Positions 12,275-62,414 of a stretch of DNA of 64,000 nt are shown piece after piece. Source of the stretch: Candidatus Omnitrophota bacterium (GTDB lineage Bacteria; Omnitrophota; Gorgyraeia; Gygaellales; Profunditerraquicolaceae); the NCBI GenBank assembly GCA_003598025.1, contig QZKH01000002.1, forward strand, positions 74,133 to 138,132, in the 5' to 3' direction. The first letter of the stretch is position 1. Each line of letters opens with the position of its first letter. The notes under the pieces are model-generated. The model made no database searches and was not told the DNA's origin. It worked only from the letters and a program-made list of their open reading frames with translations. The position numbers and the translations under genes are program-made.

Positions 12275-12344
<70 letters not shown>

Positions 12345-40246: not shown

Positions 40247-40885
40247 ATGGCCGAAAATAAACTTTTTATATTTGATTTGGACGGAACATTGATAGACGCA
40301 TATCCGGCGATAATAGATAGCTTTAATTTTACTATGGCAAAACTATGCTTACCATGCGTTTCACCGTCTATTATCCGAAAGAGCGTAGGAAGAGGCGACG
40401 AGAATCTCCTGCTTCCTTTCACAGGCAGGTTATTATTGAAAAAGGCTTTGTCAGTATACAGGAAGCATCATTCAAAAGCCCTGCTTAGCGGATCGAGATT
40501 GTTTCCTCAAACCAGAGAAGTGTTGCGGGGACTAAAAGAAAAAGGTTATCTGCTTGCAGTTGCAAGCAACAGGCCGACAAGATTTTCAGGGATACTCATA
40601 AAACACCTAAGAATAGACAGGTATTTTGATTACGTGCTTTGCGCAGACAAGCTTAAAAGAGGTAAGCCGGACCCGCTTATCCTGAATAAAATAATGAAGC
40701 GTTTGCATGTTAAGCCTTCAAATTCTTTCTATGTAGGTGACATGGTAATAGATGCGCAGGCAGGCAGGCGCGCGGGTGTTAAGTCTATAATCGTAACAAC
40801 CGGCTCCAGCAGCAGGGCTGAGATTAAAAGAGAAAGGCCGTATAAAATTATTCGGCATATCGGCAGCCTTTTAAAGCTGGCGTAA
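40247..40885 (+). CDS. HAD-superfamily hydrolase (phosphoglycolate phosphatase-like)
   Basis: Motif I FIFDLDGTLID, motif II VASNR, motif IV YVGDMVIDAQAG. Confidence 0.75.
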   Translation: MAENKLFIFDLDGTLIDAYPAIIDSFNFTMAKLCLPCVSPSIIRKSVGRGDENLLLPFTGRLLLKKALSVYRKHHSKALLSGSRLFPQTREVLRGLKEKGYLLAVASNRPTRFSGILIKHLRIDRYFDYVLCADKLKRGKPDPLILNKIMKRLHVKPSNSFYVGDMVIDAQAGRRAGVKSIIVTTGSSSRAEIKRERPYKIIRHIGSLLKLA

Positions 40886-43916: not shown

Positions 43917-44414
43917 ATGCGTAAGATTGCCATATTCGGCTCTCCAAATGTCGGTAAATCCGTAATGTTTAGTAACCTTACGGGCAGTTATGCCATAGTT
44001 TCTAATTATCCCGGGACAACCGTTGAGGTTTCCCGTGGTAAAGCAAGGATAGGAGATGAAGAATTTGAAGTCATAGATACTCCGGGAGCGTATTCTTTAC
44101 TTCCGGTTACAGAAGAAGAGAGAGTGGCGCGCTCGATATTGATAAACGAAAGGCCTTCTATCGTGCTGCATATGCTAGATGCCAAGAATCTAGAGCGTAT
44201 GCTGCCTTTGACTTTACAGCTTTTAGAGGCGGGTATGCCAGTTATTTTAATATTAAATATAACCGATGAAGCAGAGGACGCAGGCATAAATATAGATGCA
44301 AACCGTCTGGAAAGAGATCTAAGCATACCGGTTTTAGCTACTGTTTCCACTACCGGCAAAGGACTGGATATTTTAAAGGGGAGAATAGAAGAATATGTTA
44401 AGAAACTTTTATAG
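43917..44414 (+). CDS. feoB: Ferrous iron transporter FeoB, N-terminal GTPase domain, encoded as a separate ORF
   Basis: G1 GSPNVGKS, G2 T, G3 DTPG. 165 aa covers the whole G-domain. The stop overlaps the next ORF by 20 nt in another frame. Confidence 0.8.
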   Translation: MRKIAIFGSPNVGKSVMFSNLTGSYAIVSNYPGTTVEVSRGKARIGDEEFEVIDTPGAYSLLPVTEEERVARSILINERPSIVLHMLDAKNLERMLPLTLQLLEAGMPVILILNITDEAEDAGINIDANRLERDLSIPVLATVSTTGKGLDILKGRIEEYVKKLL

Positions 44415-45852
44415 AAAGATAGGTTATGATGATCCTCTGGAGTTGAGTTTATCCAGGCTGGAATCACTTTTATTATCGGACTATACCCTTTCTAAGCGCA
44501 GCATTTCTTTGCTTCTTCTGCAGGAAGATACGGAGATATTAGGCTTGGTCAAAGAAAGAGAGAAAGAGAGATTTTCAGAAATAACCACTATTATAGAAGA
44601 AACAAAAGCACATTATTCTCAGCCGCTTCTGCTTATCATTAGCCAGCGCCGCCAGGAAGAGGCAAGCCGTATAGCTAGAAGCGCCATCAGTCTTAAGGAA
44701 AAGCACAGACGCAGCATCAAGGGATATTTAAGTAAAATCATGATGAATCCTTTGACCGGAGGCCCTATACTTTTGGCAGTGCTTTATTACGGACTGTATA
44801 AATTTGTTGGAACTTTCGGTGCTGGCGTCTTGGTAGATTTTCTGGAGGAAAAGGTATTCGGAAATTTTATCAACCCGTTTATGATTAATATAATCACCCG
44901 CTATATACATTTTGAGCTACTACAGGATCTTCTTGTGGGGGAATATGGCATCATAACTCTTGGGGTCCGTTATGCCGTGGCAATCATATTACCGATTGTG
45001 GCGACATTTTTCTTTGCTTTTGCTATTGTCGAAGATACAGGTTATCTCCCGAGGCTGGCTATGTTAGTAGACAGGATGTTTAAGCGTATAGGCCTTTCCG
45101 GCAGGGCGGTGATACCTCTGGTATTAGGTTTCGGTTGTGATACGATGGCAACCATGGTAACACGGACGTTACCTACTAAACGTGAGCGGATTATCGCAAC
45201 ACTTTTGTTGGCTCTTGCTATTCCTTGTTCTGCACAGATGGGGGTAATCTTAGGGCTTCTTGGAGATAAACCGATTGGTTTGATTGTTTGGCTAGGGGTA
45301 ATAATAGCGGTATTTATGTTTATAGGATATTTGGCGGCGAAAATAATGCCGGGAGAGATGCCTACATTTTATATGGAGATTCCGCCTCTTAGGCTTCCTA
45401 AGTTATCCAATATCCTGCGTAAAACATGGTTTCGTCTTAGATGGTATTTTCTTGAGATATTGCCTATATTCTTGATTGCCAGTTTCATTATCTGGTTGGG
45501 GCAGATTACCGGGGTATTTAATTTCCTAGTGAAGCTTCTTGGTTTTCCTGTACGCTGGATAGGCCTCCCTAATGAGGCTGCAGTTGCTTTTTTATTTGGA
45601 TTCTTCCGCCGTGATTACGGGGCGGCAGGCCTCTATGATTTAAAAAAAGCAGGCCTTTTATCGGGTAATCAATTAGTAATAGCATGCGTTACACTTACCT
45701 TATTTTTACCATGTATCGCTCAATTGATGATAAATGTTAAGGAGCGCGGTATACGCATGGGGATAGCCATGTCTATATTCATTCTATTTTTTTCTTTTGG
45801 CACCGGATACATTCTAAATATACTCTTGACTCTGTTTAGCCTGCACTTATAA
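44395..45852 (+). CDS. feoB: Ferrous iron transporter FeoB, helical-linker and membrane permease portion
   Basis: GDI-like linker, then a polytopic gate/nucleoside-recognition-type membrane domain (GIITLGVRYAVAIILPIV..., GFGCDTMAT). Confidence 0.8.
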   Translation: MLRNFYRKIGYDDPLELSLSRLESLLLSDYTLSKRSISLLLLQEDTEILGLVKEREKERFSEITTIIEETKAHYSQPLLLIISQRRQEEASRIARSAISLKEKHRRSIKGYLSKIMMNPLTGGPILLAVLYYGLYKFVGTFGAGVLVDFLEEKVFGNFINPFMINIITRYIHFELLQDLLVGEYGIITLGVRYAVAIILPIVATFFFAFAIVEDTGYLPRLAMLVDRMFKRIGLSGRAVIPLVLGFGCDTMATMVTRTLPTKRERIIATLLLALAIPCSAQMGVILGLLGDKPIGLIVWLGVIIAVFMFIGYLAAKIMPGEMPTFYMEIPPLRLPKLSNILRKTWFRLRWYFLEILPIFLIASFIIWLGQITGVFNFLVKLLGFPVRWIGLPNEAAVAFLFGFFRRDYGAAGLYDLKKAGLLSGNQLVIACVTLTLFLPCIAQLMINVKERGIRMGIAMSIFILFFSFGTGYILNILLTLFSLHL

Positions 45853-45870
45853 TTAAAACAAGGAGATTTT

Positions 45871-46509
45871 ATGTTATCGCAATCGGCGGAAGAAATTTTA
45901 GAGGCATTGGCGGTTCAGCAAGAACAGGGCAAAAAACCGCTGGATCTGGGAGCGTCTCGCGATGACCCTGCGATCGAAGAATTAGTGCGATTAGGGTTTG
46001 TGCGTAAGGACGGCACCCATATACATCTGTTAGAAAAAGGGGAATCTGCAGCCCAGGGTGCTTTACGCAGGCATCGTTTGGCAGAACGCCTTTTGGTTGA
46101 TGTCTTTGATGTGAAAAAAAAGATAATAGATGAGGTAAGTTGCAAGTTTGAACATATCCTTCATGCCGGGCTTGAAGATAACGTCTGTACTATTTTAGGC
46201 CATCCCAGGGTCTGTCCGCACGGCAAGCCTATTCCTCCAGGAAAATGCTGCGGGAAGAAATATAATACTAAATTCCTGAGATTTGTTGCTCGCCTATCTG
46301 AATTGGAGGTGCATGATAAGGGAAATATCGCCTATCTTCAGAGTAAGAATGCCTCGCAAATGCAGAAACTCATCAGTATAGGCGCGCTTCCCGGAATATC
46401 AGTAACCTTAATACAAAAGTTTCCTTCCTATGTTTTTCAATTAGGCCAGAGCCAGTTTGCCATAGACAAGGAGCTGGCATCCGCAATTTATGTTCGCTTG
46501 ACTAAGTAA
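45871..46509 (+). CDS. DtxR/MntR-family metal-dependent transcriptional regulator with a C-terminal FeoA (SH3-like) domain
   Basis: RRHRLAERLL...FEHILHAG...CPHGKPIP is the DtxR metal-binding/dimerisation region. The C-terminal ~75 aa are FeoA-like (GISVTLIQKF...FQLGQSQFAIDKELASAIYV). Confidence 0.7.
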   Translation: MLSQSAEEILEALAVQQEQGKKPLDLGASRDDPAIEELVRLGFVRKDGTHIHLLEKGESAAQGALRRHRLAERLLVDVFDVKKKIIDEVSCKFEHILHAGLEDNVCTILGHPRVCPHGKPIPPGKCCGKKYNTKFLRFVARLSELEVHDKGNIAYLQSKNASQMQKLISIGALPGISVTLIQKFPSYVFQLGQSQFAIDKELASAIYVRLTK

Positions 46510-46532
46510 GAGATAGCCTTATAATAAAATCC

Positions 46533-47537
46533 ATGAAAGCAATAGGACTTATTTCCGGAGGGCTGGATAGTATATTGGCTGCAAGGATAATGAAGGATTC
46601 TGGTATTGAACTGATAGCTTTACATACCAGCAGCCCATTCTGTCTTTGCAACAAGAGAGGTTCTTCGGGATGTGTGCATAGTGCCCAGAAGGCAGCCGAT
46701 GACCTTGGCATCAGGCTTATTAACATAAATGTTTCAAGAGAAATAATTGATATTGTAAAAAAGCCTAAATACGGCTACGGCTCTAATATGAATCCCTGTA
46801 TTGATTGCCGTATCCTGCTTTTTAAGAAAGCAAAAGAAGCTATGAGCAGGGAGAATGCCTCTTTTGTGATTACAGGTGAAGTCCTGGGCCAGAGGCCAAT
46901 GTCGCAAAAAAGAGATATTATGAAGTTAATAGACAGAGAGTCGGGCCTGGAGGGGTTAGTATTAAGACCATTATCAGCCAGGGTTATGGAGCCGACACTT
47001 GCTGAAGAGAAAGGCTGGATTGATAGAAACAAACTCTTGGCGATAAGCGGCAGGGGCAGGAAAGAGCAGATATCGTTAGCCCGCTCATTTGGAGTATATG
47101 ATTATCCTTGCCCCAGCGGAGGATGCCTGCTTACAGACCCTCAGTTCAGCAGACGCTTAAAGGATCTGATTAAATACGGGAATATTGGTTTAAATGAGGT
47201 AAACTTGCTTAAGGTCGGCAGGCATTTCAGGATAAATGACAAGTTAAAGCTTGTTGTGGGGCGCAATGAAAAAGAAAACCAACAGTTGCTGAATTTAGCA
47301 AGCAGCCCGGATATGCTATTTTTACCACCCGATGATATTGCCGGCCCTATCTCCTTAGCCCGCGGGCAGATAGACAATGAATCCAGAGATTTCTGTTGCC
47401 GTATCGTATCCAGGTATTATGACAACCATGATAGCGGTCCTGTTAAGGTGGTATATAAATATTTTGGAGATTCCCAGGGCAAAGAATGCATAATTTCTCC
47501 TGCAGTTGATAAGGAAATTCAGGATATGAAGGTATAA
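46533..47537 (+). CDS. PP-loop ATP pyrophosphatase, ThiI/MnmA-like Cys-rich tRNA-sulfurtransferase-family protein
   Basis: SGGLDS PP-loop at the N-terminus. ITGEVLGQRPMSQ resembles ThiI TGESLGQVASQT. NPCIDCRILLF resembles the MnmA catalytic-Cys region. Several Cys pairs (CLC, CPSGGC). Confidence 0.55.
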   Translation: MKAIGLISGGLDSILAARIMKDSGIELIALHTSSPFCLCNKRGSSGCVHSAQKAADDLGIRLININVSREIIDIVKKPKYGYGSNMNPCIDCRILLFKKAKEAMSRENASFVITGEVLGQRPMSQKRDIMKLIDRESGLEGLVLRPLSARVMEPTLAEEKGWIDRNKLLAISGRGRKEQISLARSFGVYDYPCPSGGCLLTDPQFSRRLKDLIKYGNIGLNEVNLLKVGRHFRINDKLKLVVGRNEKENQQLLNLASSPDMLFLPPDDIAGPISLARGQIDNESRDFCCRIVSRYYDNHDSGPVKVVYKYFGDSQGKECIISPAVDKEIQDMKV

Positions 47538-47553
47538 CTTTTATCCAGAAAAG

Positions 47554-48570
47554 ATGAAAGAAGCTTATTTGTATGAAGTTATAAGTGGCGGGTATCTGCA
47601 TTGTTATCTTTGTTCACATAATTGTAAAATTAAAGAAGGGAATTCCGGATTTTGCGGCGTCAGGAAGAATATCGCCGGCAAGCTTTATTCTTTAAATTAC
47701 GGAAATCCGATAGCCATGCAGGTTGACCCGGTTGAAAAGAAGCCGCTTTATCATTTCCTCCCCGGTACAGACACCTTTTCTATAGCGACAATAGGATGTA
47801 ATTTCCGCTGTGGATTTTGCCAAAATTGGCAGATCTCACAGGCCCGGCTCGATGATAAAGCCGCAGCCGAGGGTAAGAAATTAATCCTGCCGGAGGCAAT
47901 TGTAAATTCCGCAATAAGAACCCGCTGCCCCAGTATATCTTATACTTATACTGAACCGACAATATTCTTTGAATATGCATATGATATAGCAAAGATTGCC
48001 AAGGAAAATAAGCTCTGTAATATTTTTGTAACGAATGGCTTCATGTCGAAAGATGCAATATTGATGATTAAGCCGTATCTTGATGCTGCTAATGTGGATT
48101 TAAAATTCTTTGATGATGAGATTTATAAAAAAGACTGTTCCGGAAGGCTCAACCCGGTACTGGATAGCATAAGGCTTATGAAGGAGCTGGATATATGGGT
48201 CGAGATAACAACCCTGATAATACCGGGCGAAAATGATTCGGAGGTTCAATTGAGCGGCATCGCCGGATTTATCTCCGGTATAGATAAAGGTATCCCCTGG
48301 CATATATCAAGGTTTTTCCCTAATTATGAGTTCGGTGACAGGCTGCCCACAGAAGAATCTGTTTTAAATAAGGCCAAGGAGATCGGCCTTGATGCCGGAC
48401 TTAAATACATTTATTTAGGAAATCTGCAAACAGGGGATAATAATACTTATTGCCCGGGATGCAAAAAACTATTGGTAGAAAGAACAGGATTTTCTATGCT
48501 TTCAAACCGGATAAAAGTTGATAGGTGCCCCCATTGTAATTCAACTATTCCTGGAAAGTTTGTCCCTTAA
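47554..48570 (+). CDS. Radical SAM enzyme of the AmmeMemoRadiSam / PFL-activase-like type
   Basis: N-terminal CxxCxHxC (CYLCSHNC) + GFCGVR, DPVEKKPLYHF, then a radical-SAM cluster motif in the order GCNFRCGFCQNWQIS. This pattern is characteristic of the AmmeMemoRadiSam-system radical SAM protein. Confidence 0.7.
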   Translation: MKEAYLYEVISGGYLHCYLCSHNCKIKEGNSGFCGVRKNIAGKLYSLNYGNPIAMQVDPVEKKPLYHFLPGTDTFSIATIGCNFRCGFCQNWQISQARLDDKAAAEGKKLILPEAIVNSAIRTRCPSISYTYTEPTIFFEYAYDIAKIAKENKLCNIFVTNGFMSKDAILMIKPYLDAANVDLKFFDDEIYKKDCSGRLNPVLDSIRLMKELDIWVEITTLIIPGENDSEVQLSGIAGFISGIDKGIPWHISRFFPNYEFGDRLPTEESVLNKAKEIGLDAGLKYIYLGNLQTGDNNTYCPGCKKLLVERTGFSMLSNRIKVDRCPHCNSTIPGKFVP

Positions 48571-48574
48571 TAAT

Positions 48575-49135
48575 ATGAAAGTCAGCAAAAATAAACTCAG
48601 TTACACCCGGTCCGGAAAACCAGTAGTTTTATCCGGCAAGGCTTTGTTTAAAGGTAAGCTATTAAATTTACATAAAGCCAGCGTTAATCTGCCGACAGGA
48701 TATGCGGCCGAGCTTGAGATTATAAAACATCCTGGCGCAGCCCTGGTCGTGCCGGTGTTGCCGGGAAATAAGATTGTAATGCTCAGGCAGTTCAGGCCTG
48801 TAATCGGTAAATATATCTATGAATTACCGGCAGGAACATTAGAGAAAGGCGAGAATCCTTTGTCTTGTGCCAGGCGTGAAATAGAAGAGGAAACCGGATA
48901 TCACGCGGATAAATTCAAACGGCTGGGCACTATATTTCCTGTCCCCGGGTATTCTACAGAAAAGATTGAGATATTTAAAGCAACCGGGCTTAAGAAAAGA
49001 AGATTCTCGCCTGAAAGAGATGAAGTAATCTCTGTTTTTGTGGTTACTAAATTACAGATCAGAGAATTATTAAGGAAAGGCAAACTTGTCGATGCAAAAA
49101 CTATTTGCGCGTTTTGTTTGTGCGGATGGATTTAA
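48575..49135 (+). CDS. NUDIX hydrolase (ADP-ribose pyrophosphatase-like)
   Basis: Nudix box GTLEKGENPLSCARREIEEETGY. Start set to 48575; the ORF-track start 48518 overlaps the upstream gene. Confidence 0.8.
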   Translation: MKVSKNKLSYTRSGKPVVLSGKALFKGKLLNLHKASVNLPTGYAAELEIIKHPGAALVVPVLPGNKIVMLRQFRPVIGKYIYELPAGTLEKGENPLSCARREIEEETGYHADKFKRLGTIFPVPGYSTEKIEIFKATGLKKRRFSPERDEVISVFVVTKLQIRELLRKGKLVDAKTICAFCLCGWI

Positions 49136-49205: not shown

Positions 49206-49565
49206 ATGAAAAAAGAGTTGATCGTAGTAGGCGACAGGGTTTTAATATTGCCCGATGATAACCAGGATAAGACCGAGACAGGCTTGTATCTTCCTCAAGG
49301 TGTGAGAGAAAAGGAAAAAGTCCAAAGCGGCATTGTTGTCAAAACCGGTCCCGGATACCCTATGCCTGAACCCGGGGCTGTTGATATTGAGCCCTGGCAA
49401 TCTCCTAAGGTGGATAACAGGTATTTTCCACTACAAGCCAAAGAAGGAGACTACTGTATTTTTTTAAGGAGTGCCGGGATAGAGGTTGAGTATGAAGGCA
49501 AAAAGCATATAATCGTTGCTCACTCGGCAATACTGGTTTTACTTAGAAATAACGAAGTATTATAG
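49206..49565 (+). CDS. GroES/Cpn10-family protein with a ~25-aa insertion, with no GroEL partner nearby
   Basis: IVVGDRVLILPDD...KTETGLYLP...GIVVKTGPG...EGDYCIF aligns with GroES (PLHDRVVVK...KTAGGIVLP...GEVVAVGPG...VGDKVLF). Extra segment YPMPEPGAVDIEPWQSPKVDNRYFP. Confidence 0.45.
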   Translation: MKKELIVVGDRVLILPDDNQDKTETGLYLPQGVREKEKVQSGIVVKTGPGYPMPEPGAVDIEPWQSPKVDNRYFPLQAKEGDYCIFLRSAGIEVEYEGKKHIIVAHSAILVLLRNNEVL

Positions 49566-50928: not shown

Positions 50929-51213
50929 ATGAAACAGATCACCACTCATGAAGAACAACTCGCCTTTTTAAGGAAGATCGAAGGCCAGATACGCGGTATA
51001 CAGAAGATGATCCAGGATAAGAGGTACTGCGTAGATATAATCACTCAAATCCATTCTATCATTGGCGCGCTATACAGGGTGGAGGATGAAATATTAAGAA
51101 AACACCTTGATGGCTGCGTTGTCAGCGCTCTTAAAGGCAAATCAGATTCAGACAAACAAAAGAAAATAGAAGAGATCATGTCATTGATAACTAAATTCAG
51201 GCGGAGCCCCTGA
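50929..51213 (+). CDS. csoR: CsoR/RcnR-family metal-sensing transcriptional repressor
   Basis: LRKIEGQIRGIQKMIQDKRYCVDIITQIHSIIGAL...HLDGCV matches the CsoR LKRIEGQVRGI...C-H-C signature. RBS GGAGG. Confidence 0.8.
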   Translation: MKQITTHEEQLAFLRKIEGQIRGIQKMIQDKRYCVDIITQIHSIIGALYRVEDEILRKHLDGCVVSALKGKSDSDKQKKIEEIMSLITKFRRSP

Positions 51214-51217
51214 TATT

Positions 51218-52477
51218 ATGTTGAAGAAGTTATTGATTATAATATTGCTTAGCATATTTATTCTTAACCATCCGGTTTTTGCACAGGGGATATTGTCCCT
51301 GGGGCCGCTTATCGAAGAAGCAAGGGAGAATAACCCTGGTATTCTGGCTGCCAAAAAGCGCTGGGAGGCTGCTTTGGCCCGGGTGCCTCAGGCAAAGTCT
51401 TTACAGGACCCGACTATTGGTATAGCTTTTGAGAAGATTCCGCGCGGAACGTTGAAGTTGAACAAAGTCATGGCAGATGACAGGATGCTTTCACTGCAGC
51501 AATTCTTCCCTTTTTTCGGTAAATTAACTTTGAAAGGCAAGATTGCCATGGTTGAATCTCAGATGTTTGCTGCCGAATATAAGAATAAGGAATTAGAAAT
51601 CATAAACCTTCTCAAAAATGCATATTACGATCTATTCATGAAGCAAAAAGAAATAGAATTAAGCCGCCAGAGCCTCAGGTTATTGCAAAATATCGCCAAT
51701 GTCGCCGAGGCAGGTTATACGGTTGGAGGCATCCCTCAAGAAGAGGTGTATAAAATAAATTCTGAAATAGCCCGTCTTAGTACCAATATTAAAAATTTAG
51801 ACCAGGAAAAATCTGCCAAACAGACATTAATTAATTCCCTTTTAAATAGAGACCCTGAAATGCCATTAGGAGACCCTGATTTAAAAGAAGATGTCTTATT
51901 TGATAAGGATGTCAGGGCTTTATACCAGGCTACTCTTCTTAACCAGCCAGAGCTGGTTATCTTTTCTTATTCTATAGAGAAAAACAAATATTCTAAATCA
52001 TTAGCCAAAAGAAGTTTTTTCCCTGATTTTATGGCAAGTATTGTCCAGCGGGGGATCACTTCCGGGATGCTCGGGCCGTGGGATTTGATGCTGGCTTTTA
52101 ATGTGCCACTATGGTTTTGGACGAAACAGCGTTATGAGATTAAGGAGGCCATTGCCAATTTAGAAGAGGCAGAAGCCGCATATAAGGCAATGCAGAATAA
52201 GGCATTCAGCGAAGTAAAAGACCTGGCTGCGAAGATAGAGGTCTCCAAGAACAAAATCACATTGAATAAAACAAGCTTGATCCCGATGCTGGAAGCCTCC
52301 ATTGAATCTTCGCTGGCGGCTTTTAATTCAGGCAAAGGTGATTTTATGATGCTTTTGGATAGCCAGAGAATGCTTATTGAAACAAAAATGGACTATTATA
52401 GAGCGCTGGTTGAATATAATATGAATCTAGCGGACTTAGAAAGAACTGTAGGCATTCAGCTACAAGAGGAGAAATAA
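51218..52477 (+). CDS. cusC: Outer membrane efflux protein (TolC/CusC-like) of a heavy-metal RND system
   Basis: Signal peptide. Two OEP repeats with coiled-coil helices. Terminal ...DLERTVGIQ. Upstream of the MFP and RND genes. Confidence 0.7.
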   Translation: MLKKLLIIILLSIFILNHPVFAQGILSLGPLIEEARENNPGILAAKKRWEAALARVPQAKSLQDPTIGIAFEKIPRGTLKLNKVMADDRMLSLQQFFPFFGKLTLKGKIAMVESQMFAAEYKNKELEIINLLKNAYYDLFMKQKEIELSRQSLRLLQNIANVAEAGYTVGGIPQEEVYKINSEIARLSTNIKNLDQEKSAKQTLINSLLNRDPEMPLGDPDLKEDVLFDKDVRALYQATLLNQPELVIFSYSIEKNKYSKSLAKRSFFPDFMASIVQRGITSGMLGPWDLMLAFNVPLWFWTKQRYEIKEAIANLEEAEAAYKAMQNKAFSEVKDLAAKIEVSKNKITLNKTSLIPMLEASIESSLAAFNSGKGDFMMLLDSQRMLIETKMDYYRALVEYNMNLADLERTVGIQLQEEK

Positions 52478-52478
52478 A

Positions 52479-53663
52479 ATGAATAGAAAGATGCTAGTTA
52501 TTATTTTATCGTTGATTTTTGTTACTGCATACCAGATAGGTTCCCCGGCTTATTCTTTTGCCCAGCACCAAGGCCATACCGACGGAACTTCTTCTAAAAA
52601 AGGCAAGGGTCAGGAACCAGCGCCTATGAAAATATATCGCTGCCCGATGCATCCTCAAGTTGTATCTGATAAGCCTGGTAAATGCCCTATCTGCGGTATG
52701 GTTTTATCTGAGGTTATTGAAAGCGATACAAAAGCCGTAGAAACATCCGGAGAAGGCCCGGTCATTAAAATAAAGGAAAGCCAGGCTGAGCTTATTGGTG
52801 TTGTGACAGAACCTATTGTATCGGTTGGTTTGATGCGCATGATACCTGCGGTTGCCAAAATCGCTTTTGACCCGGAACTCTATCAGGCCCAGGCAGAATT
52901 TATACAGGCCAATAAGACTAAAGATGCCGTAAGCCTGAGTAGCTCTTCCGAAATCAGAGATAGGCTAGAAGCCCTGGTGCTTGCCGCTACTTCCAAGCTT
53001 AAGCTCATGGGTTTATCAGATTCGCAAATTGAAGAACTAAGAAATGAAGAAGAGCCCGATAGTGTTCTTTTGATGTCAAAAGGCCAGAGCTCTTATACTT
53101 GGGCATACTTGACTATTTATGAGCATGATTTAGGTTCAGTAAAACAAGGGGATCATGTTGTATTGAAAGCAATTGCTTATCCGGCAGAAGAGTTTAATGG
53201 CAAGATAGTCGCAATTGATCCTGTCTTAGATACGAATACGCGAAGCGTTCGTGCCCGTGTGCAGGTGGATAATCCGGAAGCAAAACTGAAACCCAATATG
53301 TATGCCGATGCTTTTATCCATGTTGACTTAGGCCAGAGGCTTGCTGTTCCAAGGGAAGCGGTATTGGATACAGGCGTAAGAAAAATTGTGTATGTTGAAT
53401 TAGGCAAAGGGCAATTCAGGCCTCAAGAGGTACAGACAGAGTCAGAAGCAATTGCATTAATTGACGGTAAAGAACGTAAATTTTATCCGGTGTTGTCCGG
53501 GCTTAATGAGAATGATATTGTGGTGACAACCGGAAATTTCTTGATTGACTCGCAAAGCCAGCTTACCGGAGGAATGTCTGCCTTGTGGGGAGCATCAACA
53601 GAGATAAAGCAGGATCAGGTTGAGGGTGTTGCAGGAGAGGTAAAAACGCAACATCGCCATTGA
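52479..53663 (+). CDS. cusB: Heavy-metal efflux RND periplasmic adaptor (CusB-like) with an N-terminal CxxC metal-binding domain
   Basis: YRCPMHPQVVSDKPGKCPICGMVL heavy-metal-binding motif, followed by an MFP beta-barrel/lipoyl region (KPNMYADAFIHV). Confidence 0.8.
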   Translation: MNRKMLVIILSLIFVTAYQIGSPAYSFAQHQGHTDGTSSKKGKGQEPAPMKIYRCPMHPQVVSDKPGKCPICGMVLSEVIESDTKAVETSGEGPVIKIKESQAELIGVVTEPIVSVGLMRMIPAVAKIAFDPELYQAQAEFIQANKTKDAVSLSSSSEIRDRLEALVLAATSKLKLMGLSDSQIEELRNEEEPDSVLLMSKGQSSYTWAYLTIYEHDLGSVKQGDHVVLKAIAYPAEEFNGKIVAIDPVLDTNTRSVRARVQVDNPEAKLKPNMYADAFIHVDLGQRLAVPREAVLDTGVRKIVYVELGKGQFRPQEVQTESEAIALIDGKERKFYPVLSGLNENDIVVTTGNFLIDSQSQLTGGMSALWGASTEIKQDQVEGVAGEVKTQHRH

Positions 53664-53673
53664 AAGGCAAGAT

Positions 53674-56600
53674 ATGATAAATAAAATAATAAATTATTGT
53701 TTAAAGACCCCGTTTGTGGTTTTTGTTGCCTATTCGGCAGTGTTTTTTTGGGGTTTATGGGCAATTACTAATATACCGGTTGATGCGATACCGGATATCG
53801 GCGAGAAACAGGTAATAATATATACCGAATGGCCCGGCCGTTCTGCAAAAGATGTAGAAGATCAGGTTACGTATCCGCTTTCCGTATCCCTACGCGGTAT
53901 CCCCGGAGTAAAGACCATACGCGCATCAAGCGCTTTTGGCTTTTCTGAAGTATACCTTATTTTTAATGACAATATAGATTACTATTGGGCCCGCTCCCGA
54001 GTTTTAGAGAAATTAAATCTTGCCTCCAGCCGCCTGCCAATGGGCGTTATGCCTGTTTTAGGTCCTGATGCCACAGGTTTGGGGCAGATTTTCTGGTATA
54101 CCGTTGAGGGTAAAGGCTACGGTATTGACCAGTTGAGGAGCATTCAGGATTGGTTTATCCGCTATCAGCTTAATTCAGTTCAGGGTGTATCTGAAGTTGC
54201 TTCTATCGGAGGGTTCGTTAAGCAGTACCAGATCGATATCGACCCTAACAAGATGCTGGCTTACAACATTCATTTAGGCCAGATAATGGAAGCGGTTAAA
54301 AAATCGAATATAGATGTAGGAGCTAAGGTCGTTGAAAATAATGCTATGGAATATATTATCCGCGGTTTAGGGTTTATAAAATCCCTGGAGGACATCGAGA
54401 ACATTGCGGTAGGCGAAATAAATGGCGTGCCTATTTATATCAAGAATATTGCCAATGTTCAGCTTGGGCCTGAATTCCGAAGAGGAGCGCTGGATAAAGA
54501 TGGCCAAGAGGCAGTCGGTGGCGTGGTCATTATGCGTTACGGGGAAAACGCAATGCAGGTTATCCATCGTGTAAAAGAAGCCATAAAGGAACTGCAGAAA
54601 GGTTTACCCGAAGGAGTAAAAATAGTTCCCTTTTACGACCGGACAGACCTGATCCATCGCACTATAGGGACTCTTCGCGAAGCCCTCATCTTGGAAATTA
54701 TTATTACCATGGCAGTAGTCGTGCCGTTCCTGGCTCATATCTGGGCAGGCGTAATCATTAGCATTACTTTGCCGTTCTCGGTTTTGATAGCATTTATTGC
54801 GATGTACTATTTAAAAGTAGATTCTAATATTACATCTTTATCCGGTATTGCGATTGCGATAGGAACACTGGTAGATATGGGTATTGTTATGACCGAAAAT
54901 ATTTACCGGCGTTTAATCGAATATAGCGATGATATTAAGAAAGGGGTAAAGTCCAGGCTGGATGTAGTATTTAAGGCATCTTCAGAGGTAGGTTCTGCGG
55001 TTATCACGGCAATACTTACTACGGTAGTATCATTCCTTGCTGTATTTGCACTCGAAGCCCAGGAAGGAAAACTCTTTAAACCACTTGCATATACTAAGAC
55101 TTTTACCCTTTTGGCCTCTGTTACAGTTGCACTTACCTTGACTCCGGTCCTTTGCATGTATCTTCTAAAAGGAAGATTGCGGGCCCCGGAGGAAAACATA
55201 TTGGTGAAGATACTACAGAGGAACTATGAGAAAGTCTTGCGTTGGTGTTTGAATCACAGGGTTACTTTCTTACTCATACCGGCAGTTTTACTTATAACCA
55301 GCATACCTTTTATATTGCCAAAAGATATTACTTCTTTGGCTGTTTTCCTGCTTATTGTTGTAGCGTTACTGGTATTTATTCTGCCTAAGAAGACAAAATC
55401 AGTAATCGCCTCTGTTTTAGTCGTGGTTATAAGCCTGGGCTGGTTCTGGTTTTCACCTCGCATAGGGCGTGAGTTCATGCCTCCATTTGATGAGGGTTCG
55501 ATCCTGTTCATGCCGGTAATGCATCCTTCAGTATCCTTGACCGAAGCAATCCGCGTAATCCAGATACAGGACAAGATAATAAAATCATTCCCGGAGGTAG
55601 AATTGGTAGTAGGCAAGGTCGGCCGGGCAGAATCTGCGACTGACCCTGCTCCGGTTGAAATGTTTGAGACCATAATTACTCTAAAGCCGAAAAAAGATTG
55701 GCGTAAGGGTATGACAAAGGAAAAACTTATCCGCCAGATGGATGCTGCCTTACAAATCCCCGGGGTATCGAATATCTGGACACAGCCTATTGTTAACCGT
55801 ATTGATATGTTAGCTACGGGTATCAGGACCTCTGTAGGTGTAAAGGTTTTTGGGCCTGACCTCAAAAAAATTGAGGAGATTGCAACAGAGATAGAGAAAG
55901 TCCTCAGGGCTGTACCTGGAGCCGTAGATTTATATTCAGAAAAGATTGTAGGTAAGCCCTATATAGAGTTTAAAATCAAAAGAGAGCAATTAGCCCGTTA
56001 TGGCATATCCATACGCGAAGTTCAGGATGTTATAGAGATGGCCATAGGCGGTGAAAATCTCACTACTACTGTTGAAGGTAGGGAGCGTTACCCTGTTCGC
56101 GTACGCTATGCCAGGGAGCTGAGAGATAATATAGATGCCTTAAGAAGGGTCCTGGTATCAACAAAAGATGGTGCTCAAATCCCGATCAGCCAGCTGGTTG
56201 ATATATATTTTGTTACCGGTCCGGCAATGATTAATTCGGAGAACGGGCTTTTGCGCGCCTATGTCTTGATGAATGTCCGCGGCAAAGATATGGTTACATT
56301 TGTCGAAGATGCGTCTAAAATCGTATCTGAAAAAGTAAAATTGCCTGCAGGGTATTTTATTCAATGGTCAGGCCAATTTGAAAATCAAGTCCGGGCCAAG
56401 AAAAAGATAGCCGTGCTTTTACCGGTCAGCCTGTTAATAAACTTTATGCTGATTTATATGAATTTCCGTTCCATAATAAAGTCGGTATTTATTTTTACGG
56501 CTGTTCCTGTGACATTGGCCGGTGGGATATGGCTTTTGGCATTTTCAGGATTTAATTTTTCAGTTGCTGTATGGGTAGGTTTTATCGCACTATTCGGGAT

Positions 56601-56940
56601 CGCTGTTGACGATGGAGTATTGATTACAACGTATCTTGACGACGTATTTGGAGAGAGGAAAGATAAGATAAAAAACAGGCAGGACGTTGTTGAGGCGACT
56701 GTCCATGCAGGTTTAGGTAGGATCAGGCCGGCGTTTCTCACAACTATGACTACTATTGTTGCGCTTCTACCGATTATGTTCTTAAAAGGAACAGGCGCGG
56801 AAGTTATGCAGCCCATGGCTATACCTTCCATAGGCGGGATGGTTTTTGAGATGGTTACCTGGTTTATAGTTCCGGTTTTATATTCATGGCGCGAAGAAAG
56901 AAAGATAGCGAAAGCAAAACCTTTACTATCTAAACCTTAA
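53674..56940 (+). CDS. cusA: Heavy-metal efflux RND pump, CusA/CzcA (HME) family
   Basis: 1088 aa. AcrB/CzcA-type 12-TM architecture (DAIPDIGEKQVIIYTEWPGRSAKDVEDQVTYPL). Methionine-containing transmembrane segments. Confidence 0.9.
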   Translation: MINKIINYCLKTPFVVFVAYSAVFFWGLWAITNIPVDAIPDIGEKQVIIYTEWPGRSAKDVEDQVTYPLSVSLRGIPGVKTIRASSAFGFSEVYLIFNDNIDYYWARSRVLEKLNLASSRLPMGVMPVLGPDATGLGQIFWYTVEGKGYGIDQLRSIQDWFIRYQLNSVQGVSEVASIGGFVKQYQIDIDPNKMLAYNIHLGQIMEAVKKSNIDVGAKVVENNAMEYIIRGLGFIKSLEDIENIAVGEINGVPIYIKNIANVQLGPEFRRGALDKDGQEAVGGVVIMRYGENAMQVIHRVKEAIKELQKGLPEGVKIVPFYDRTDLIHRTIGTLREALILEIIITMAVVVPFLAHIWAGVIISITLPFSVLIAFIAMYYLKVDSNITSLSGIAIAIGTLVDMGIVMTENIYRRLIEYSDDIKKGVKSRLDVVFKASSEVGSAVITAILTTVVSFLAVFALEAQEGKLFKPLAYTKTFTLLASVTVALTLTPVLCMYLLKGRLRAPEENILVKILQRNYEKVLRWCLNHRVTFLLIPAVLLITSIPFILPKDITSLAVFLLIVVALLVFILPKKTKSVIASVLVVVISLGWFWFSPRIGREFMPPFDEGSILFMPVMHPSVSLTEAIRVIQIQDKIIKSFPEVELVVGKVGRAESATDPAPVEMFETIITLKPKKDWRKGMTKEKLIRQMDAALQIPGVSNIWTQPIVNRIDMLATGIRTSVGVKVFGPDLKKIEEIATEIEKVLRAVPGAVDLYSEKIVGKPYIEFKIKREQLARYGISIREVQDVIEMAIGGENLTTTVEGRERYPVRVRYARELRDNIDALRRVLVSTKDGAQIPISQLVDIYFVTGPAMINSENGLLRAYVLMNVRGKDMVTFVEDASKIVSEKVKLPAGYFIQWSGQFENQVRAKKKIAVLLPVSLLINFMLIYMNFRSIIKSVFIFTAVPVTLAGGIWLLAFSGFNFSVAVWVGFIALFGIAVDDGVLITTYLDDVFGERKDKIKNRQDVVEATVHAGLGRIRPAFLTTMTTIVALLPIMFLKGTGAEVMQPMAIPSIGGMVFEMVTWFIVPVLYSWREERKIAKAKPLLSKP

Positions 56941-56952
56941 AAAGGAGGTAAG

Positions 56953-57324
56953 ATGTATATGGCAAGGATTTATTTTCTAAGTTTAGCTGTAGTTTTTGCA
57001 TCGGTTTCTTTGGTATTTGCACAAATGCACGAGCACGCAGATATGCATAAGAATATGATGGAGCAAGCAGAACAAAGTAAGGCCGAGAATGTGGGAAATA
57101 AGATTTGCCCTGTAAGCGGGGAGAAGATAATTGAAGAATTCAAAGCAACATATGAATACAAGGGTAAGATTTACAATTTTTGTTGCGCTTCTTGCGTTGA
57201 AGAATTCAAAAAAGACCCGGAAAAATATATTAAAAAGATAGAGGAAGAGGAAAAAGCAGCTCTCAAAGAAGAGAACAAAGTTACAAAGCCGGATTCAGAC
57301 ACCCATAAGGGACACCAACACTAA
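56953..57324 (+). CDS. Secreted YHS-domain metal-binding protein with a His/Met-rich N-terminal motif
   Basis: Signal peptide, MHEHADMHKNMM stretch, then the YHS domain ICPVSGEKI...KGKIYNFCCASCVEEFKKDPEKY. Confidence 0.7.
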   Translation: MYMARIYFLSLAVVFASVSLVFAQMHEHADMHKNMMEQAEQSKAENVGNKICPVSGEKIIEEFKATYEYKGKIYNFCCASCVEEFKKDPEKYIKKIEEEEKAALKEENKVTKPDSDTHKGHQH

Positions 57325-57336
57325 AAACACAGTTAT

Positions 57337-58056
57337 ATGGCTAAGAGAATCAGTTTGTTAAATAAATCCATACTTCTAAGCATTATTATGCTATTAGTTG
57401 TTACTGTCATTTCTTTTGCTAAAGATCAGTCTGGGCTTAAAAAGGAGATCTATTCAAAATTAAAGTGTTGTAATTGCGCTGTATCTTTTGAAAAGTGCAC
57501 TTGCGCTGAGGCTAATGAAATAAAACCATATGCAGACAAGCTTATTGCGGATGGATTTAGGCCAGAAGAGATTTTTTATAGGTTAGCTAAACGTTTCTCG
57601 TTGAAGATAATTACTGACCCTCAAATAAAACAACAGGTTGAAAAAAGGCTGATTAAAGAAATGAAAGGTATGTCCCCCAAGATAGCTGTCGAAAATGGGA
57701 CAGTTAATTTAGGGGCTATCAGTAAAAAGAAAAATAAACTTTATAAAAGCAGCTACAAGCTGGTCAATGAAGGCAATGCTGCTTTAAGAATCTCAAACAT
57801 AAAGACATCATGTCCTTGCGTAAGTGTTGCGCTTAAATCAAGAGATTCAGTCACTCCCTATTTTGGAGTGGGGGGTTCAGCAGTAGACTTAGGTGTAACC
57901 ATTGAGCCGGGAAGCTCTGCAGATTTGATGATAATATTTGATTTGACACATCCGAGCGTAAGCAGGGGCAAGCTCATAAGATATATTTTTATAAACAGTA
58001 ACGACCCTTTAACTCCTCAGTTTGAATTGGAATTAACCGCAGATATAATCAAATAG
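57337..58056 (+). CDS. Membrane-anchored protein with a Cys-rich CcmH-like N-domain and a C-terminal DUF1573 domain
   Basis: KCCNCAVSFEKCTC + ADKLIADGFRPEEIFYRLAKRF resembles the CcmH thiol-motif and helix. The C-terminal YKLVNEGNAALRISNIKTSCPCV matches the DUF1573 hallmark (tSCGCT). Confidence 0.4.
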   Translation: MAKRISLLNKSILLSIIMLLVVTVISFAKDQSGLKKEIYSKLKCCNCAVSFEKCTCAEANEIKPYADKLIADGFRPEEIFYRLAKRFSLKIITDPQIKQQVEKRLIKEMKGMSPKIAVENGTVNLGAISKKKNKLYKSSYKLVNEGNAALRISNIKTSCPCVSVALKSRDSVTPYFGVGGSAVDLGVTIEPGSSADLMIIFDLTHPSVSRGKLIRYIFINSNDPLTPQFELELTADIIK

Positions 58057-58121
58057 TATATTTGTTAAAGCATAGCCTATTTAAAAACAAAATAGGACCG
58101 TAAAAAAGATAAATTTTTTTC

Positions 58122-58150
58122 TTGACAAATGATACCATTATGGTATCATT
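58122..58150 (+). promoter_or_regulatory. Promoter (-35 TTGACA at 58122-58127) followed by a perfect 10-3-10 palindrome AATGATACCA-TTA-TGGTATCATT (58128-58150); candidate Rrf2/NsrR-family operator
   Basis: Perfect inverted repeat, positioned between the -35 and a TATCAT -10-like hexamer. The Rrf2-hcp operon is downstream. Confidence 0.6.
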
Positions 58151-58169
58151 TAACGAGAAAGGAGGTAAT

Positions 58170-58247
58170 ATGGATATAACTATCAGGTATATGCTTCGGC
58201 CGGTAGCTCACTGCAAAGAAGGTTGTAGTATTTTGTCCTGGGTATGA
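58170..58247 (+). CDS. Possible 25-aa leader peptide (MDITIRYMLRPVAHCKEGCSILSWV) with a strong RBS
   Basis: AAAGGAGGT lies 6 nt upstream of the ATG at 58170. Sits between the operator/promoter and rrf2. Two hairpins follow (CCGGC...GCCGG at about 58261-58282; CACTC...GAGTG at about 58287-58307). Confidence 0.3.
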   Translation: MDITIRYMLRPVAHCKEGCSILSWV

Positions 58248-58341
58248 CGTTAAATCGCCCGGCTCGCATTTGCCTGCCGGATGACACTCGGGATCAATCT
58301 GAGTGCTGCCCATTTAACCCCTGATAAATAAAAAGGAAAAT

Positions 58342-58737
58342 ATGAAATTATTAACCAGAGATACGGATTATGCGGTAAGGGCGCTTTGTTTTATAGCAAG
58401 AATGGATAATAAAGTTGTTCCTGTTCCGGAATTAGTCAGGGAGCTTGATGTCCCCAGGCCATTTTTGAGGAAGATCCTGCAGATACTGCACAAAAAGGGT
58501 ATTTTGTATTCTTTTAAAGGTAAAGGAGGCGGATTCTCTTTGGCAAAACCTCCAGATAAGATATTAATTACCGATTTAATAAAGATATTTCAGAATTCTC
58601 TTAAATTAAATGAGTGCATACTGAAAAAAAGAATATGCCCTAATAAGGGCGCCTGTTCTCTAAGGCGTAAGATCGATGGTATTGAAAAGATTGTTGCTAA
58701 GGAGCTAAGTTCTATAACTGTAAAGTCATTAATCTAG
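58342..58737 (+). CDS. Rrf2-family transcriptional regulator (NsrR/IscR-like)
   Basis: TRDTDYAVRALCFIA...VPVPELVRELDVPRPFLRKILQILHKKGIL wHTH, plus the three-Cys cluster region (C...CPNKGAC). Confidence 0.85.
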   Translation: MKLLTRDTDYAVRALCFIARMDNKVVPVPELVRELDVPRPFLRKILQILHKKGILYSFKGKGGGFSLAKPPDKILITDLIKIFQNSLKLNECILKKRICPNKGACSLRRKIDGIEKIVAKELSSITVKSLI

Positions 58738-58752
58738 AAAAGGAGTTAAGAA

Positions 58753-60432: not shown

Positions 60433-60447
60433 AATACGGGGGAAACT

Positions 60448-61284: not shown

Positions 61285-62024
61285 TGCTTGGGTGTCCTGG
61301 TTCAGGGCCGTTCAAGCAGCCAAAGCCCGAAGACCTAAAGTGTTCCAGGTGTAATGCTGAAATTGAGATCTGGAGCGATGAAGCCAAGGCTAAATGCCCG
61401 TCTTGCGGAAATATTGTATTACGCAAATTTTCCGGAAACACATGCCTTGACTGGTGTAAAGAAGCCCGTTTCTGCGTCGGAGATAAAGTTTATAAAAATT
61501 ATATTCAGGGCAAGGCAGCATCCTTAAAACAGGGGATAGTCGAAGAGATGGAGCGTTATTTCGGAGATGATACAAAGAGGATAAGGCACGCAAGGAATGT
61601 TATGGGATTTGCTGAAATGATCCTCAAGGAACATAAAGCAGATTGGCATATCGTTATACCCGCTAGCCTATTGCATGATATAGGGATTAAGCGGGCTCAG
61701 GAGAAATACGGCTCAACCTCGGGGCATTACCAGGAGATAGAAGGGCCTGCAATCGCAGAGGCCATACTTAATAAATTGGGGGTCAAAAAAAGCGATATTG
61801 ATGAAATTTGCCAGATTATTGCACATCATCATTCCCCGGGCATAGTTAATACTGAGAATTTTAAAGTCTTATATGATGCTGATTGGCTGGTAAATTTAAA
61901 AGACGAGTATGATATTAAAGACAGGCAAAAACTGATCCGGATTATCGATAGGGTATTTCTGACGGAAACAGGCAAAAGGTTAGCCAACGATACTTACGTT
62001 AACTTAAAAAGGAGTAATCTATGA
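61281..62024 (+). CDS. HD-domain phosphohydrolase with an N-terminal zinc-ribbon
   Basis: CSRCNAE...CPSCGN zinc ribbon. HD motif H...HD ([13 protein letters not shown]...LLHDIG) and downstream AHHHS. Confidence 0.7.
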
Positions 62025-62242: not shown

Positions 62243-62303
62243 TAAATTTATCCCAGGCGGTTAGTTAGCCGTATTAAATAAATAGTGTTTTTAAATAACC
62301 TTC

Positions 62304-62345: not shown

Positions 62346-62414
62346 TAATATGCTATACCCTTTGACTATTATCAGCCCGCTGTTATAATGGGACAGGATA
62401 GGCGGAGGTGTAAT

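Follow-up and report, generated by a model that had tools for sequence, protein, structure and literature searches.

The domain architectures, gene arrangement and clade-restricted distribution described below suggest that the window (the whole 64-kb stretch of DNA that was analysed) carries an operon, particular to one lineage and transcribed as a unit, for two iron-sulfur enzymes whose substrates most likely differ. The first, ThiI-NFACT-R, is a ThiI/TtuI-type PP-loop ATPase with a C-terminal NFACT-R RNA-binding domain, and the second, AmrS, is the radical SAM enzyme of the AmmeMemoRadiSam system. We put the probability of this reading at about 0.6. The pairing would accordingly reflect the expression of Fe-S-dependent housekeeping enzymes along with metal supply rather than a dedicated two-enzyme pathway.

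Both genes lie on the + strand, thiI at 46533-47537 (334 aa) and amrS at 47554-48570 (338 aa), with a spacing of 16 nt. Four nucleotides further downstream begins a gene for a NUDIX hydrolase of the NudE/ADP-ribose pyrophosphatase-like type (48575-49135, + strand), followed by one for an atypical GroES-like (Cpn10) protein that carries an insertion (49206-49565, + strand), both identified by profile and Pfam matches. A terminator scan of the + strand detected none in the thiI, amrS and nudix intervals, and the NUDIX gene is probably co-transcribed with the pair. The two open reading frames of the initial annotation lie exactly at the positions given there, and the two downstream genes follow as it described. 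Also present are all the motifs it quoted, SGGLDS, NPCIDCRILLF and TGEVLGQ in the PP-loop protein and CYLCSHNC (CxxCxHxC), GFCGVR, DPVEKKPLYHF and GCNFRCGFCQNWQIS in the radical SAM protein. A consensus scan predicts a Sigma-70-like promoter (TTGACT-16-TATAAT, 11/12) at 46498-46525 on the + strand, 8 nt 5' of the ATG of thiI, where it overlaps the 3' end of the dtxR-feoA gene, and a near-identical second element at 45826-45853, 5' of dtxR. A common metal-regulator operator in these two promoter-like elements was considered and rejected as too weak, given that they share just TTGACT...TAGCCT...TTATAAT, and a search of the two elements for operators identified none.

The protein encoded by thiI matches the Pfam profiles ThiI (PF02568, E 1.8e-9, residues 2-147) and tRNA_Me_trans (E 9.8e-7), and NCBIfam TIGR00342 aligns with residues 2-147 through its positions 174-312. 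PF02568 and TIGR00342 place the PP-loop (adenine nucleotide alpha-hydrolase) domain at residues 1-148 (46533-46976, + strand). Pfam searches of the protein gave no match to THUMP or rhodanese domains. At its C-terminus, PF18297 identifies an NFACT-R_2 RNA-binding domain (72.4 bits against a cutoff of 26.9, E 3.8e-20) that spans residues 229-330 (47217-47522, + strand) and is also recovered by Foldseek. Because of this domain, the profile matches assign the protein to the "ThiI+DUF814" (NFACT-R) family, which has been predicted to comprise an alternative tRNA 4-thiouridine synthetase (Burroughs and Aravind, 2014; PMC4075521). Thus, the ThiI-type assignment that had been made from the letters of the sequence is upheld by both Pfam profiles, but the NFACT-R_2 domain had been overlooked, and what was taken for an unknown adenylating enzyme belongs to a fusion family for which a function has already been proposed. 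We accordingly regard the window protein as a predicted tRNA s4U synthetase; its homologues bear the NCBI name tRNA 4-thiouridine(8) synthase ThiI. It is 100% identical to a protein from a Candidatus Omnitrophota MAG (P0001).

The likeness to the ThiI+DUF814 family extends from the order of the domains, a ThiI-type PP-loop followed by NFACT-R_2 without THUMP or rhodanese, to the published motifs, namely CxxC together with an internal Cys, as well as an active-site-loop GRxRxxQ (PMC4075521). In the alignment of ThiI-NFACT-R proteins, SGGLDS, PFCLC, NPCxDCR, GR.R..Q and GGCLLT are invariant, and C89xxC92, C198 and G173-R174-x-R176-xx-Q179 are conserved without exception across 23 sequences. The gene context differs: TusA is the sole conserved neighbour given for the family (PMC4075521), whereas the downstream operon partner is AmrS here and LarE in Desulfobacterota. 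Pfam scans of the 64-kb window detected no TusA, rhodanese or cysteine desulfurase (Aminotran_5). The link to TusA, with or without IscS, belongs to the genomic context of the family and does not define it at the sequence level. A literature search found no experimental characterisation of DUF814+ThiI, AmmeMemoRadiSam or AMMECR1.

The AF2 model of ThiI-NFACT-R (pLDDT 87.7) matches the folds of the ThiI-RNA complex 4kr6, LarE, MnmA, NcsA and TtuA, and Foldseek additionally recovers FBPS (5h3w) and RqcH (8s1u/7aqc). With TtuI (archaeal ThiI), TtuA, NcsA and LarE, the protein shares the PP-loop fold, the combination of a CxxC with one further conserved Cys, and the lack of a rhodanese domain; NcsA, TtuA and [4Fe-4S]-LarE are among its structural matches. 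TtuI differs in having an N-terminal THUMP domain, whereas the window protein is predicted to bind RNA through its C-terminal NFACT-R domain. [4Fe-4S]-dependent tRNA U8 thiolases are known from archaea (PMC12084879), and from its sequence we infer that ThiI-NFACT-R carries an Fe-S cluster. The NFACT-R domain of this THUMP-less, rhodanese-less ATPase would bind tRNA, and the PP-loop would adenylate O4 of a uridine, by analogy U8. Sulfur would then be delivered, probably from a cluster on the conserved CxxC and third Cys, in the manner of the archaeal enzymes.

Profile scores and alignment identify the second protein as a true AmrS. Its score against TIGR04337 is 327.6 bits (cutoff 220), followed at a great distance by the YjjW activase (51.9), PflA (44.5; cutoff 231.75) and NrdG (41.3; cutoff 131.15), so that its designation as an AmmeMemoRadiSam-type enzyme in the initial annotation is borne out. 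To a PflA-like core the protein adds a motif of four Cys at the N-terminus and a CxxC...CxxC ribbon at the C-terminus. C82/C86/C89 (CxxxCxxC), C17/C20/C24/C34 and D58-P64 are invariant in the Omnitrophota enzymes and in the canonical AmrS of Segatella, Ideonella and Trichlorobacter. The AmmeMemoRadiSam system consists of amrA (AMMECR1), amrB (Memo) and amrS, and the reference enzymes of Segatella and Ideonella are those encoded beside Memo+AMMECR1. The window AmrS aligns with such canonical enzymes end to end, with identical invariant Cys, and is full-length, with DPxEKKP and GCNxxCxxCQN also in place. It differs from that system in its setting, which includes no amrA or amrB within 64 kb and in which a gene of tRNA-thiolase type precedes amrS in the operon.

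A sequence search identified no homologue of AmrS with a solved structure. The top fold match of its AF2 model (pLDDT 77) is PflA bound to a peptide substrate (3cb8; TM 0.78 on target), which makes the activases the nearest solved fold, with the partial TIM-barrel radical SAM core and the CxxxCxxC cluster motif in common. Nevertheless, identity to PflA is about 16%, the scores of all glycyl-radical activase models (PflA, NrdG, YjjW, CutD and relatives) lie at 22-52 bits, where the cutoffs are 131-500, and AmrS adds the N-terminal four-Cys domain and the C-terminal ribbon. Pfam scans of the 64-kb window found no gene with a glycyl-radical or PFL domain. We therefore reject a glycyl-radical activase, which would have the fold alone in common with AmrS, since all activase profiles fall below cutoff and a cognate enzyme gene is missing from the window. 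AmrS would cleave SAM to yield a 5'-deoxyadenosyl radical that acts on some substrate, probably a protein; the C-terminal motif appears zinc-ribbon-like, and the N-terminal four-Cys site would be an addition to the PflA-like core.

The absence of AMMECR1 and Memo, reported in the initial annotation, holds for the window. Pfam scans of 65/68 ORFs in the 64 kb gave no match to AMMECR1 (PF01871) or Memo (PF01875), a six-frame scan of the window found no LRGCIG- or PHAG-type motif of these proteins, and tblastn with the Memo+AMMECR1 fusions of Segatella and Ideonella returned nothing in the whole window, including the three ORFs outside the Pfam scans, or in any Omnitrophota locus. The span free of these genes extends 46 kb upstream and 15 kb downstream of the pair. 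This absence does not distinguish the locus, however. Among 80 related metagenomic loci centred on amrS (44-60% identity), Memo or AMMECR1 is adjacent in 4, whereas 72 have neither these partners nor ThiI; on plasmids, 4 of 6 amrS loci are without AMMECR1 and Memo. The missing partners are therefore not unusual, and adjacency to Memo/AMMECR1, which fails in 76/80 loci, is not a defining feature of this AmrS branch, where a lone amrS is the majority state. A divergent radical SAM gene 8.8 kb upstream of thiI at another locus (L029) was examined as a canonical cassette and rejected, as its neighbours include no AMMECR1 or Memo.

The recurrence of the pair could be confirmed, within a single clade. 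We found thiI-amrS at 23 loci, 14 of which show an ATGA stop/start overlap (median gap -4). The ThiI tree groups all 23 in a single clade of Omnitrophota, where the pair is kept in 23/31 evaluable loci and adjacency has been lost at least twice. Outside the clade, the pair occurs in 0/43 evaluable loci, drawn from basal Omnitrophota, Desulfobacterota, Planctomycetota, Bacillota, Kiritimatiellia and archaea. Likewise, 63 metagenomic amrS loci extend upstream by 1 kb or more; thiI lies directly upstream in only 3 of them, which are the three closest relatives. The pairing thus traces to a single evolutionary event in one Omnitrophota clade and, being confined to one bacterial lineage, amounts to a modest lead and not to a new system. 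Inside the clade the overlapping bicistron is retained even where ThiI identity has fallen to about 46%, and the gene 3' of amrS keeps changing. This retention of the 4-nt overlap next to a variable downstream gene is a point against two enzymes with separate substrates: it is compatible with selection on joint expression and perhaps with a partnership, physical or functional, of the two proteins.

The genes upstream place this event in a metal-related context. In the window, thiI is preceded by an iron-uptake block (43917-46509, + strand), recognized from profile and Pfam matches and comparison of loci, that consists of a split feoB, with its G domain at 43917-44414 and its membrane part at 44395-45852, and a dtxR-feoA fusion regulator (45871-46509), all on the + strand. 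This block (feoB, dtxR-feoA) adjoins thiI in most loci of the pair clade, and conservation of the iron/zinc-uptake genes upstream comes close to that of the pair itself. The metal-uptake context of thiI is ancestral and predates the pair. We propose that amrS joined thiI once, operon-style with the ATGA overlap, in the ancestor of the clade and within an older block of iron/zinc-uptake genes (ZIP, Fur, FeoAB, DtxR), which would place both enzymes under co-regulation. Of 25 Desulfobacterota-type loci, 24 have LarE as the gene overlapping the stop codon of ThiI. Which enzyme accompanies ThiI-NFACT-R in the operon thus varies by lineage, AmrS in Omnitrophota and LarE in Desulfobacterota. Generally, ThiI-NFACT-R genes always adjoin iron-sulfur or sulfur-transfer enzymes or metal-uptake genes.

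A joint RNA-modification module, in which ThiI-NFACT-R binds tRNA or rRNA and adenylates or thiolates one of its uridines, the RNA also undergoes a radical reaction catalysed by AmrS, and ThiI-NFACT-R replaces AMMECR1/Memo, is possible but unlikely. It would account for the translational coupling in 14/23 loci and its persistence despite sequence divergence and variable downstream genes, and also for the lack of AMMECR1/Memo around the pair and in all Omnitrophota loci. A contig outside the clade (L099) has the reversed order amrS-hpt-thiI, and the sole Memo match among the related loci is a stand-alone gene two genes from ThiI-NFACT-R on a Brocadiia contig (L066). Furthermore, a published prediction makes AMMECR1 an enzyme that modifies RNA bases, and in archaea there is a linkage between NFACT genes and AMMECR1 (PMC4075521). 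These observations form a thin web between NFACT-R proteins and Amr components, which likewise counts against the reading favoured here.

Against such a module, the pair arose once, was lost repeatedly and is missing outside the clade despite the wide distribution of both families, and the coupling of ThiI-NFACT-R to LarE is equally tight in another phylum. Moreover, 4-nt overlaps are ordinary in the source genome (about 11% of gene junctions), the nearest fold of AmrS is that of a protein-directed activase, and the absence of AmrA/AmrB is established for the window, 64 kb of a contig of about 409 kb, and the loci rather than for a whole genome. Of 954 family representatives, the 150 best include no ThiI-AmrS fusion; two long representatives were examined as Rosetta-stone candidates and proved to be ThiI-NFACT-R+TatC and HAD+ThiI-NFACT-R, neither of which includes AmrS. 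A bolder version, in which the ThiI-NFACT-R of this clade took over from AMMECR1/Memo as the AmrS partner in a two-step modification of tRNA or rRNA (adenylation or thiolation first, then radical-SAM chemistry) and the whole AmmeMemoRadiSam system acts on RNA, appears improbable.

The alternative that the two genes are neighbours merely through neutral, inherited synteny, and that this carries no meaning for function or regulation, is quite unlikely. The single origin with at least two losses, the similar conservation of the Feo/ZIP neighbours and the variable, unrelated neighbours of most amrS genes would all be expected under it. However, the ATGA overlap is kept in 14/23 loci and the pair outlasts many replacements downstream, and therefore at least co-transcription appears to be under selection. 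It is highly improbable that AmrS acts on the ThiI-NFACT-R protein, as an activase or maturase of PflA type whose product, a radical or a post-translational modification, is needed for thiolase activity: the peptide-bound PflA match, a stop/start overlap suggestive of stoichiometric co-production and the typical location of glycyl-radical activase genes beside those of their protein substrates would fit, but ThiI-NFACT-R lacks an adjacent AmrS in the 43 evaluable out-of-clade loci and 8 in-clade loci, its alignment contains neither a glycyl-radical-type motif nor a clade-specific insert, and AmrS scores far under the cutoffs of all activase models.

The thiolase activity of ThiI+NFACT-R proteins has been a computational prediction since 2014. 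AMMECR1 is a conserved human X-linked disease gene. With amrS translationally coupled to a putative RNA-binding thiolase, the Omnitrophota clade offers a route both to the s4U prediction and to the idea that Amr components act on RNA. Should ThiI-NFACT-R indeed be the partner of AmrS, the AmmeMemoRadiSam system, including the human AMMECR1 family, would act on RNA. In the likelier case of two independent enzymes, the locus still illustrates that a lone amrS is normal in this branch and that the partner of ThiI-NFACT-R depends on lineage.

Several further candidates were rejected. An anti-phage defence system finds only generic PADLOC matches, to the radical SAM core (pVip, about 20 bits) and to the NUDIX box (25.5 bits). 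The NUDIX and GroES-like genes, considered as conserved partners, are not kept at other pair loci: by tblastn, NUDIX is beside the pair in the window alone, and the GroES-like gene is missing from all other pair loci. The GroES-like protein shares 40% identity with the product of a GroES-family gene that neighbours a lone amrS on a plasmid of Trichlorobacter. Within Omnitrophota, where this GroES-like family is 70-80% conserved, three other contigs carry it beside an H+-PPase gene, away from amrS and thiI.

The two co-oriented ORFs, at 46533-47537 (plus strand, 334 aa) and 47554-48570 (plus strand, 338 aa), lie exactly where the initial annotation placed a PP-loop ATPase and a radical SAM enzyme. 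Both encode ordinary members of known families; what is new is their arrangement in a clade-restricted, apparently translationally coupled thiI-amrS operon, unreported in the 2014 neighborhood analysis of the PP-loop family (PMC4075521). The PP-loop protein matches the Pfam ThiI and tRNA_Me_trans models, in agreement with the sulfurtransferase type originally assigned, but its C-terminal NFACT-R_2 domain (PF18297; 72.4 bits, cutoff 26.9) had been overlooked. It is the ThiI+DUF814 fusion of Burroughs and Aravind 2014 (PMC4075521), here ThiI-NFACT-R, for which the authors predicted a role as THUMP-independent tRNA 4-thiouridine synthetase and gave TusA as the only conserved neighbor. The motifs listed in that study (SGGLDS, CxxC, an internal Cys and GRxRxxQ) are invariant across 23 homologues, and many close homologues carry the NCBI name tRNA 4-thiouridine(8) synthase ThiI. 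The AF2 model (pLDDT 87.7, pTM 0.85) matches the PP-loop sulfurtransferases ThiI (RNA complex 4kr6), LarE (including its [4Fe-4S] form), MnmA, NcsA and TtuA, and its C-terminal domain matches the NFACT-R-containing FBPS and RqcH. We found no experimental work on this fusion family in the searchable literature. Because archaea are known to have rhodanese-free U8 thiolases that depend on a [4Fe-4S] cluster (PMC12084879), an Fe-S cluster on the conserved Cys triad would be the most plausible chemistry. The protein is 100% identical to P0001, from a Candidatus Omnitrophota MAG (locus tag C4533_00800; contig of about 409 kb).

The assignment of the radical SAM protein to the AmmeMemoRadiSam family is borne out by 327.6 bits (cutoff 220) against TIGR04337, the model of that system's radical SAM enzyme (RefSeq gene name amrS), as opposed to only 22-52 bits on glycyl-radical activase models of the PflA/NrdG type. 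Over its full length it can be aligned with canonical AmrS proteins from Segatella and Ideonella plasmids, whose genes adjoin Memo+AMMECR1 fusion genes; common to all are the N-terminal C17/C20/C24/C34 motif, DPxEKKP, the cluster motif C82/C86/C89 and, at the C-terminus, a CxxC...CxxC ribbon. No solved structure for AmrS was detectable by sequence-based search; the closest fold to its AF2 model (pLDDT 77) is PflA (3cb8; TM 0.78 on target, 16% identity).

With respect to the usual AmrS partners, 65 of the window's 68 ORFs were scanned with Pfam, and none showed an AMMECR1, Memo, TusA, rhodanese or cysteine desulfurase domain. The other three ORFs (13989-16406, apparently a leucyl-tRNA synthetase; 26632-29562, apparently SecA; and 63607-63999, which is partial) were covered by a six-frame motif scan and by tblastn with two real Memo+AMMECR1 proteins, both over the whole window and both negative for AMMECR1 and Memo. 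Thus, neither partner is present in the 46 kb before or the 15 kb after the pair. The reported absence accordingly holds within the 64-kb window but not as a distinctive trait: among 80 amrS-centered metagenome-contig loci (44-60% identity), Memo and/or AMMECR1 adjoin amrS in four (both in L130, L143 and L165, only Memo visible on the short contig L160; all at 48-49% identity), ThiI-NFACT-R in four, and neither in 72. Among the plasmid amrS loci, a Memo+AMMECR1 fusion adjoins the gene in two of six and is lacking beside it in the other four. The local lack of AMMECR1 and Memo is therefore not distinctive. Unbiased neighbor clustering of the 80 metagenomic loci found no dominant amrS neighbor, and a USP-like gene lies near amrS in four. 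The most frequent neighbor in this sample, which was not selected via ThiI, is a class-I SAM methyltransferase (Methyltransf_11), present in 8 of the 80 loci and directly upstream of lone amrS in 7-8 (e.g., L124 5298-6143).

Scanning species-representative genomes with a ThiI-NFACT-R alignment yielded 80 loci from Omnitrophota, Desulfobacterota, Planctomycetota, Bacillota, Kiritimatiellia and several archaeal lineages; the next gene downstream is a co-oriented amrS in 18, all Omnitrophota. Together with the window, contig L003 and three metagenomic contigs, these make 23 loci with the pair, all of which fall in one clade of the neighbor-joining tree of ThiI-NFACT-R. The pair is kept in 23 of 31 evaluable loci within this clade, having been lost in a seven-member subclade and in one further locus (L010), and is found in 0 of 43 evaluable loci outside it, so that the adjacency has a single origin followed by vertical inheritance. 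Seen from amrS, thiI is upstream in only 3 of the 63 metagenomic loci where 1 kb or more of sequence precedes the gene, and these three contain the closest relatives of the window AmrS. The pair thus does recur across genomes, but within one Omnitrophota clade.

In 14 of the 23 loci the thiI stop and amrS start share 4 nt (ATGA; median gap -4), which points to co-transcription and translational coupling; about 11% of junctions in the window, however, overlap by 4 nt. The window's own 16-nt thiI-amrS spacer is a derived state. No terminator-like hairpin was found on the plus strand between thiI, amrS and the NUDIX and GroES-like genes, which follow as initially described (NUDIX, plus strand, starting 4 nt past amrS; GroES-like, 49206-49565, plus strand, 70 nt further on). 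Just 5' of thiI, at 46498-46525, stands a sigma-70-like element close to consensus (TTGACT-16-TATAAT), and a near-identical promoter-like element at 45826-45853 precedes a dtxR-feoA fusion gene. Both are followed by a TAGCCT-type sequence; the one at thiI, if a promoter, would leave that gene almost leaderless, and no operator could be defined in either. Most loci with the pair retain FeoA/FeoB, DtxR-FeoA or ZIP genes upstream. Since the arrangement ZIP-ThiI-Fur-FeoB already exists in basal Omnitrophota beyond the clade, the pair sits within a metal-uptake block that predates it. The gene 3' of amrS is variable (isochorismatase in eight loci, CitMHS in three, others).

We favor, with a probability of roughly 0.6, an operon particular to this lineage whose two Fe-S enzymes, AmrS and ThiI-NFACT-R as a predicted s4U synthetase for tRNA, would act on separate substrates while being expressed together with the genes for iron and zinc uptake. 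It is unlikely that the two form a module sharing one RNA target: the preserved overlap, a single contig outside the clade ordered amrS-hpt-thiI (L099), a stand-alone Memo gene near ThiI-NFACT-R on one Brocadiia contig (L066) and the published NFACT-AMMECR1 link in archaea (PMC4075521) speak for it, but these are single cases plus one shared-ancestry event and hence not independent replication. Purely neutral synteny is less probable than such a module, and the strong version of the latter, in which the shared target makes the Amr system RNA-directed, ranks below this. An activase model, with AmrS acting on ThiI, is very improbable, far more so than the module. The initial observation of the pair holds up, and its reading as an RNA or small-molecule modification module has support in part: the families are right and the pair recurs, but a shared pathway goes beyond the present evidence. 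The two-enzyme operon gives inexpensive experimental access to two uncharacterized families.

On the metagenomic contig L099 (4057-5995), amrS comes first, then an hpt-like phosphoribosyltransferase gene and thiI-NFACT-R, opposite to the usual arrangement; the ThiI fragment there has no PFCLC and is placed outside the clade. The Memo-family gene of L066 (Candidatus Brocadiia; 8251-9108, minus strand; PF01875, E 6.5e-48) is divergent to ThiI-NFACT-R (9995-11044), with one MBL-fold hydrolase gene between them and no AMMECR1 or AmrS within 10 kb.

LarE, described as a 'sacrificial sulfur transferase' PP-loop protein (TIGR00268, 313 bits), directly follows and overlaps ThiI-NFACT-R in 24 of 25 Desulfobacterota-type loci, a pairing not mentioned in the 2014 family description (PMC4075521). 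The arrangement is general across L051-L082 (e.g., L081, ThiI-NFACT-R 9995-11008 and LarE 11005-11910, with a 4-nt overlap). Among the best 150 of 954 family representatives there is no ThiI-AmrS fusion, and the two long ones, P0423 (695 aa) and P0491 (519 aa), are fusions, one to a C-terminal TatC and one to an N-terminal HAD-type hydrolase. A HAD hydrolase gene recurs a few genes upstream of Omnitrophota thiI (window 40247-40885; L001, 6365-7006).

The NUDIX gene was dropped as a conserved part of the pair, being beside it in this window alone, and no defense-system models were matched. The GroES-like protein, an atypical GroES/Cpn10-like form with an insertion (GPGYPxP...W...YxPLQA), was likewise dropped as an AmrS partner: its family, 70-80% conserved across Omnitrophota, is usually found next to an H+-translocating pyrophosphatase gene. 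The window copy shares 40% identity with a GroES-family gene adjoining a lone amrS on Trichlorobacter lovleyi plasmid pIAE1 (L086, 4246-4629).

The window feoB is split into G-domain (43917-44414) and membrane-domain (44395-45852) genes overlapping by 20 nt; the identical split with equal lengths (165 and 485 aa) in L003, another Omnitrophota genome, shows this to be a real arrangement rather than a frameshift. Metal and redox stress genes at 50929-63602 (CsoR-type repressor, TolC/HlyD/CusA-type efflux, YHS-domain protein, Rrf2, hybrid-cluster protein, ferredoxin-like, HD-domain and flavodiiron proteins) make the region around the pair resemble a metal and redox homeostasis island. Plus-strand coding in 66 of 68 selected ORFs and positive GC skew throughout 1-64000 place the window on a single leading strand; its only two tRNA genes, Leu(CAA) at 11742-11826 and Ala(GGC) at 12271-12344, are on the minus strand, and the ORFs listed over them are spurious.
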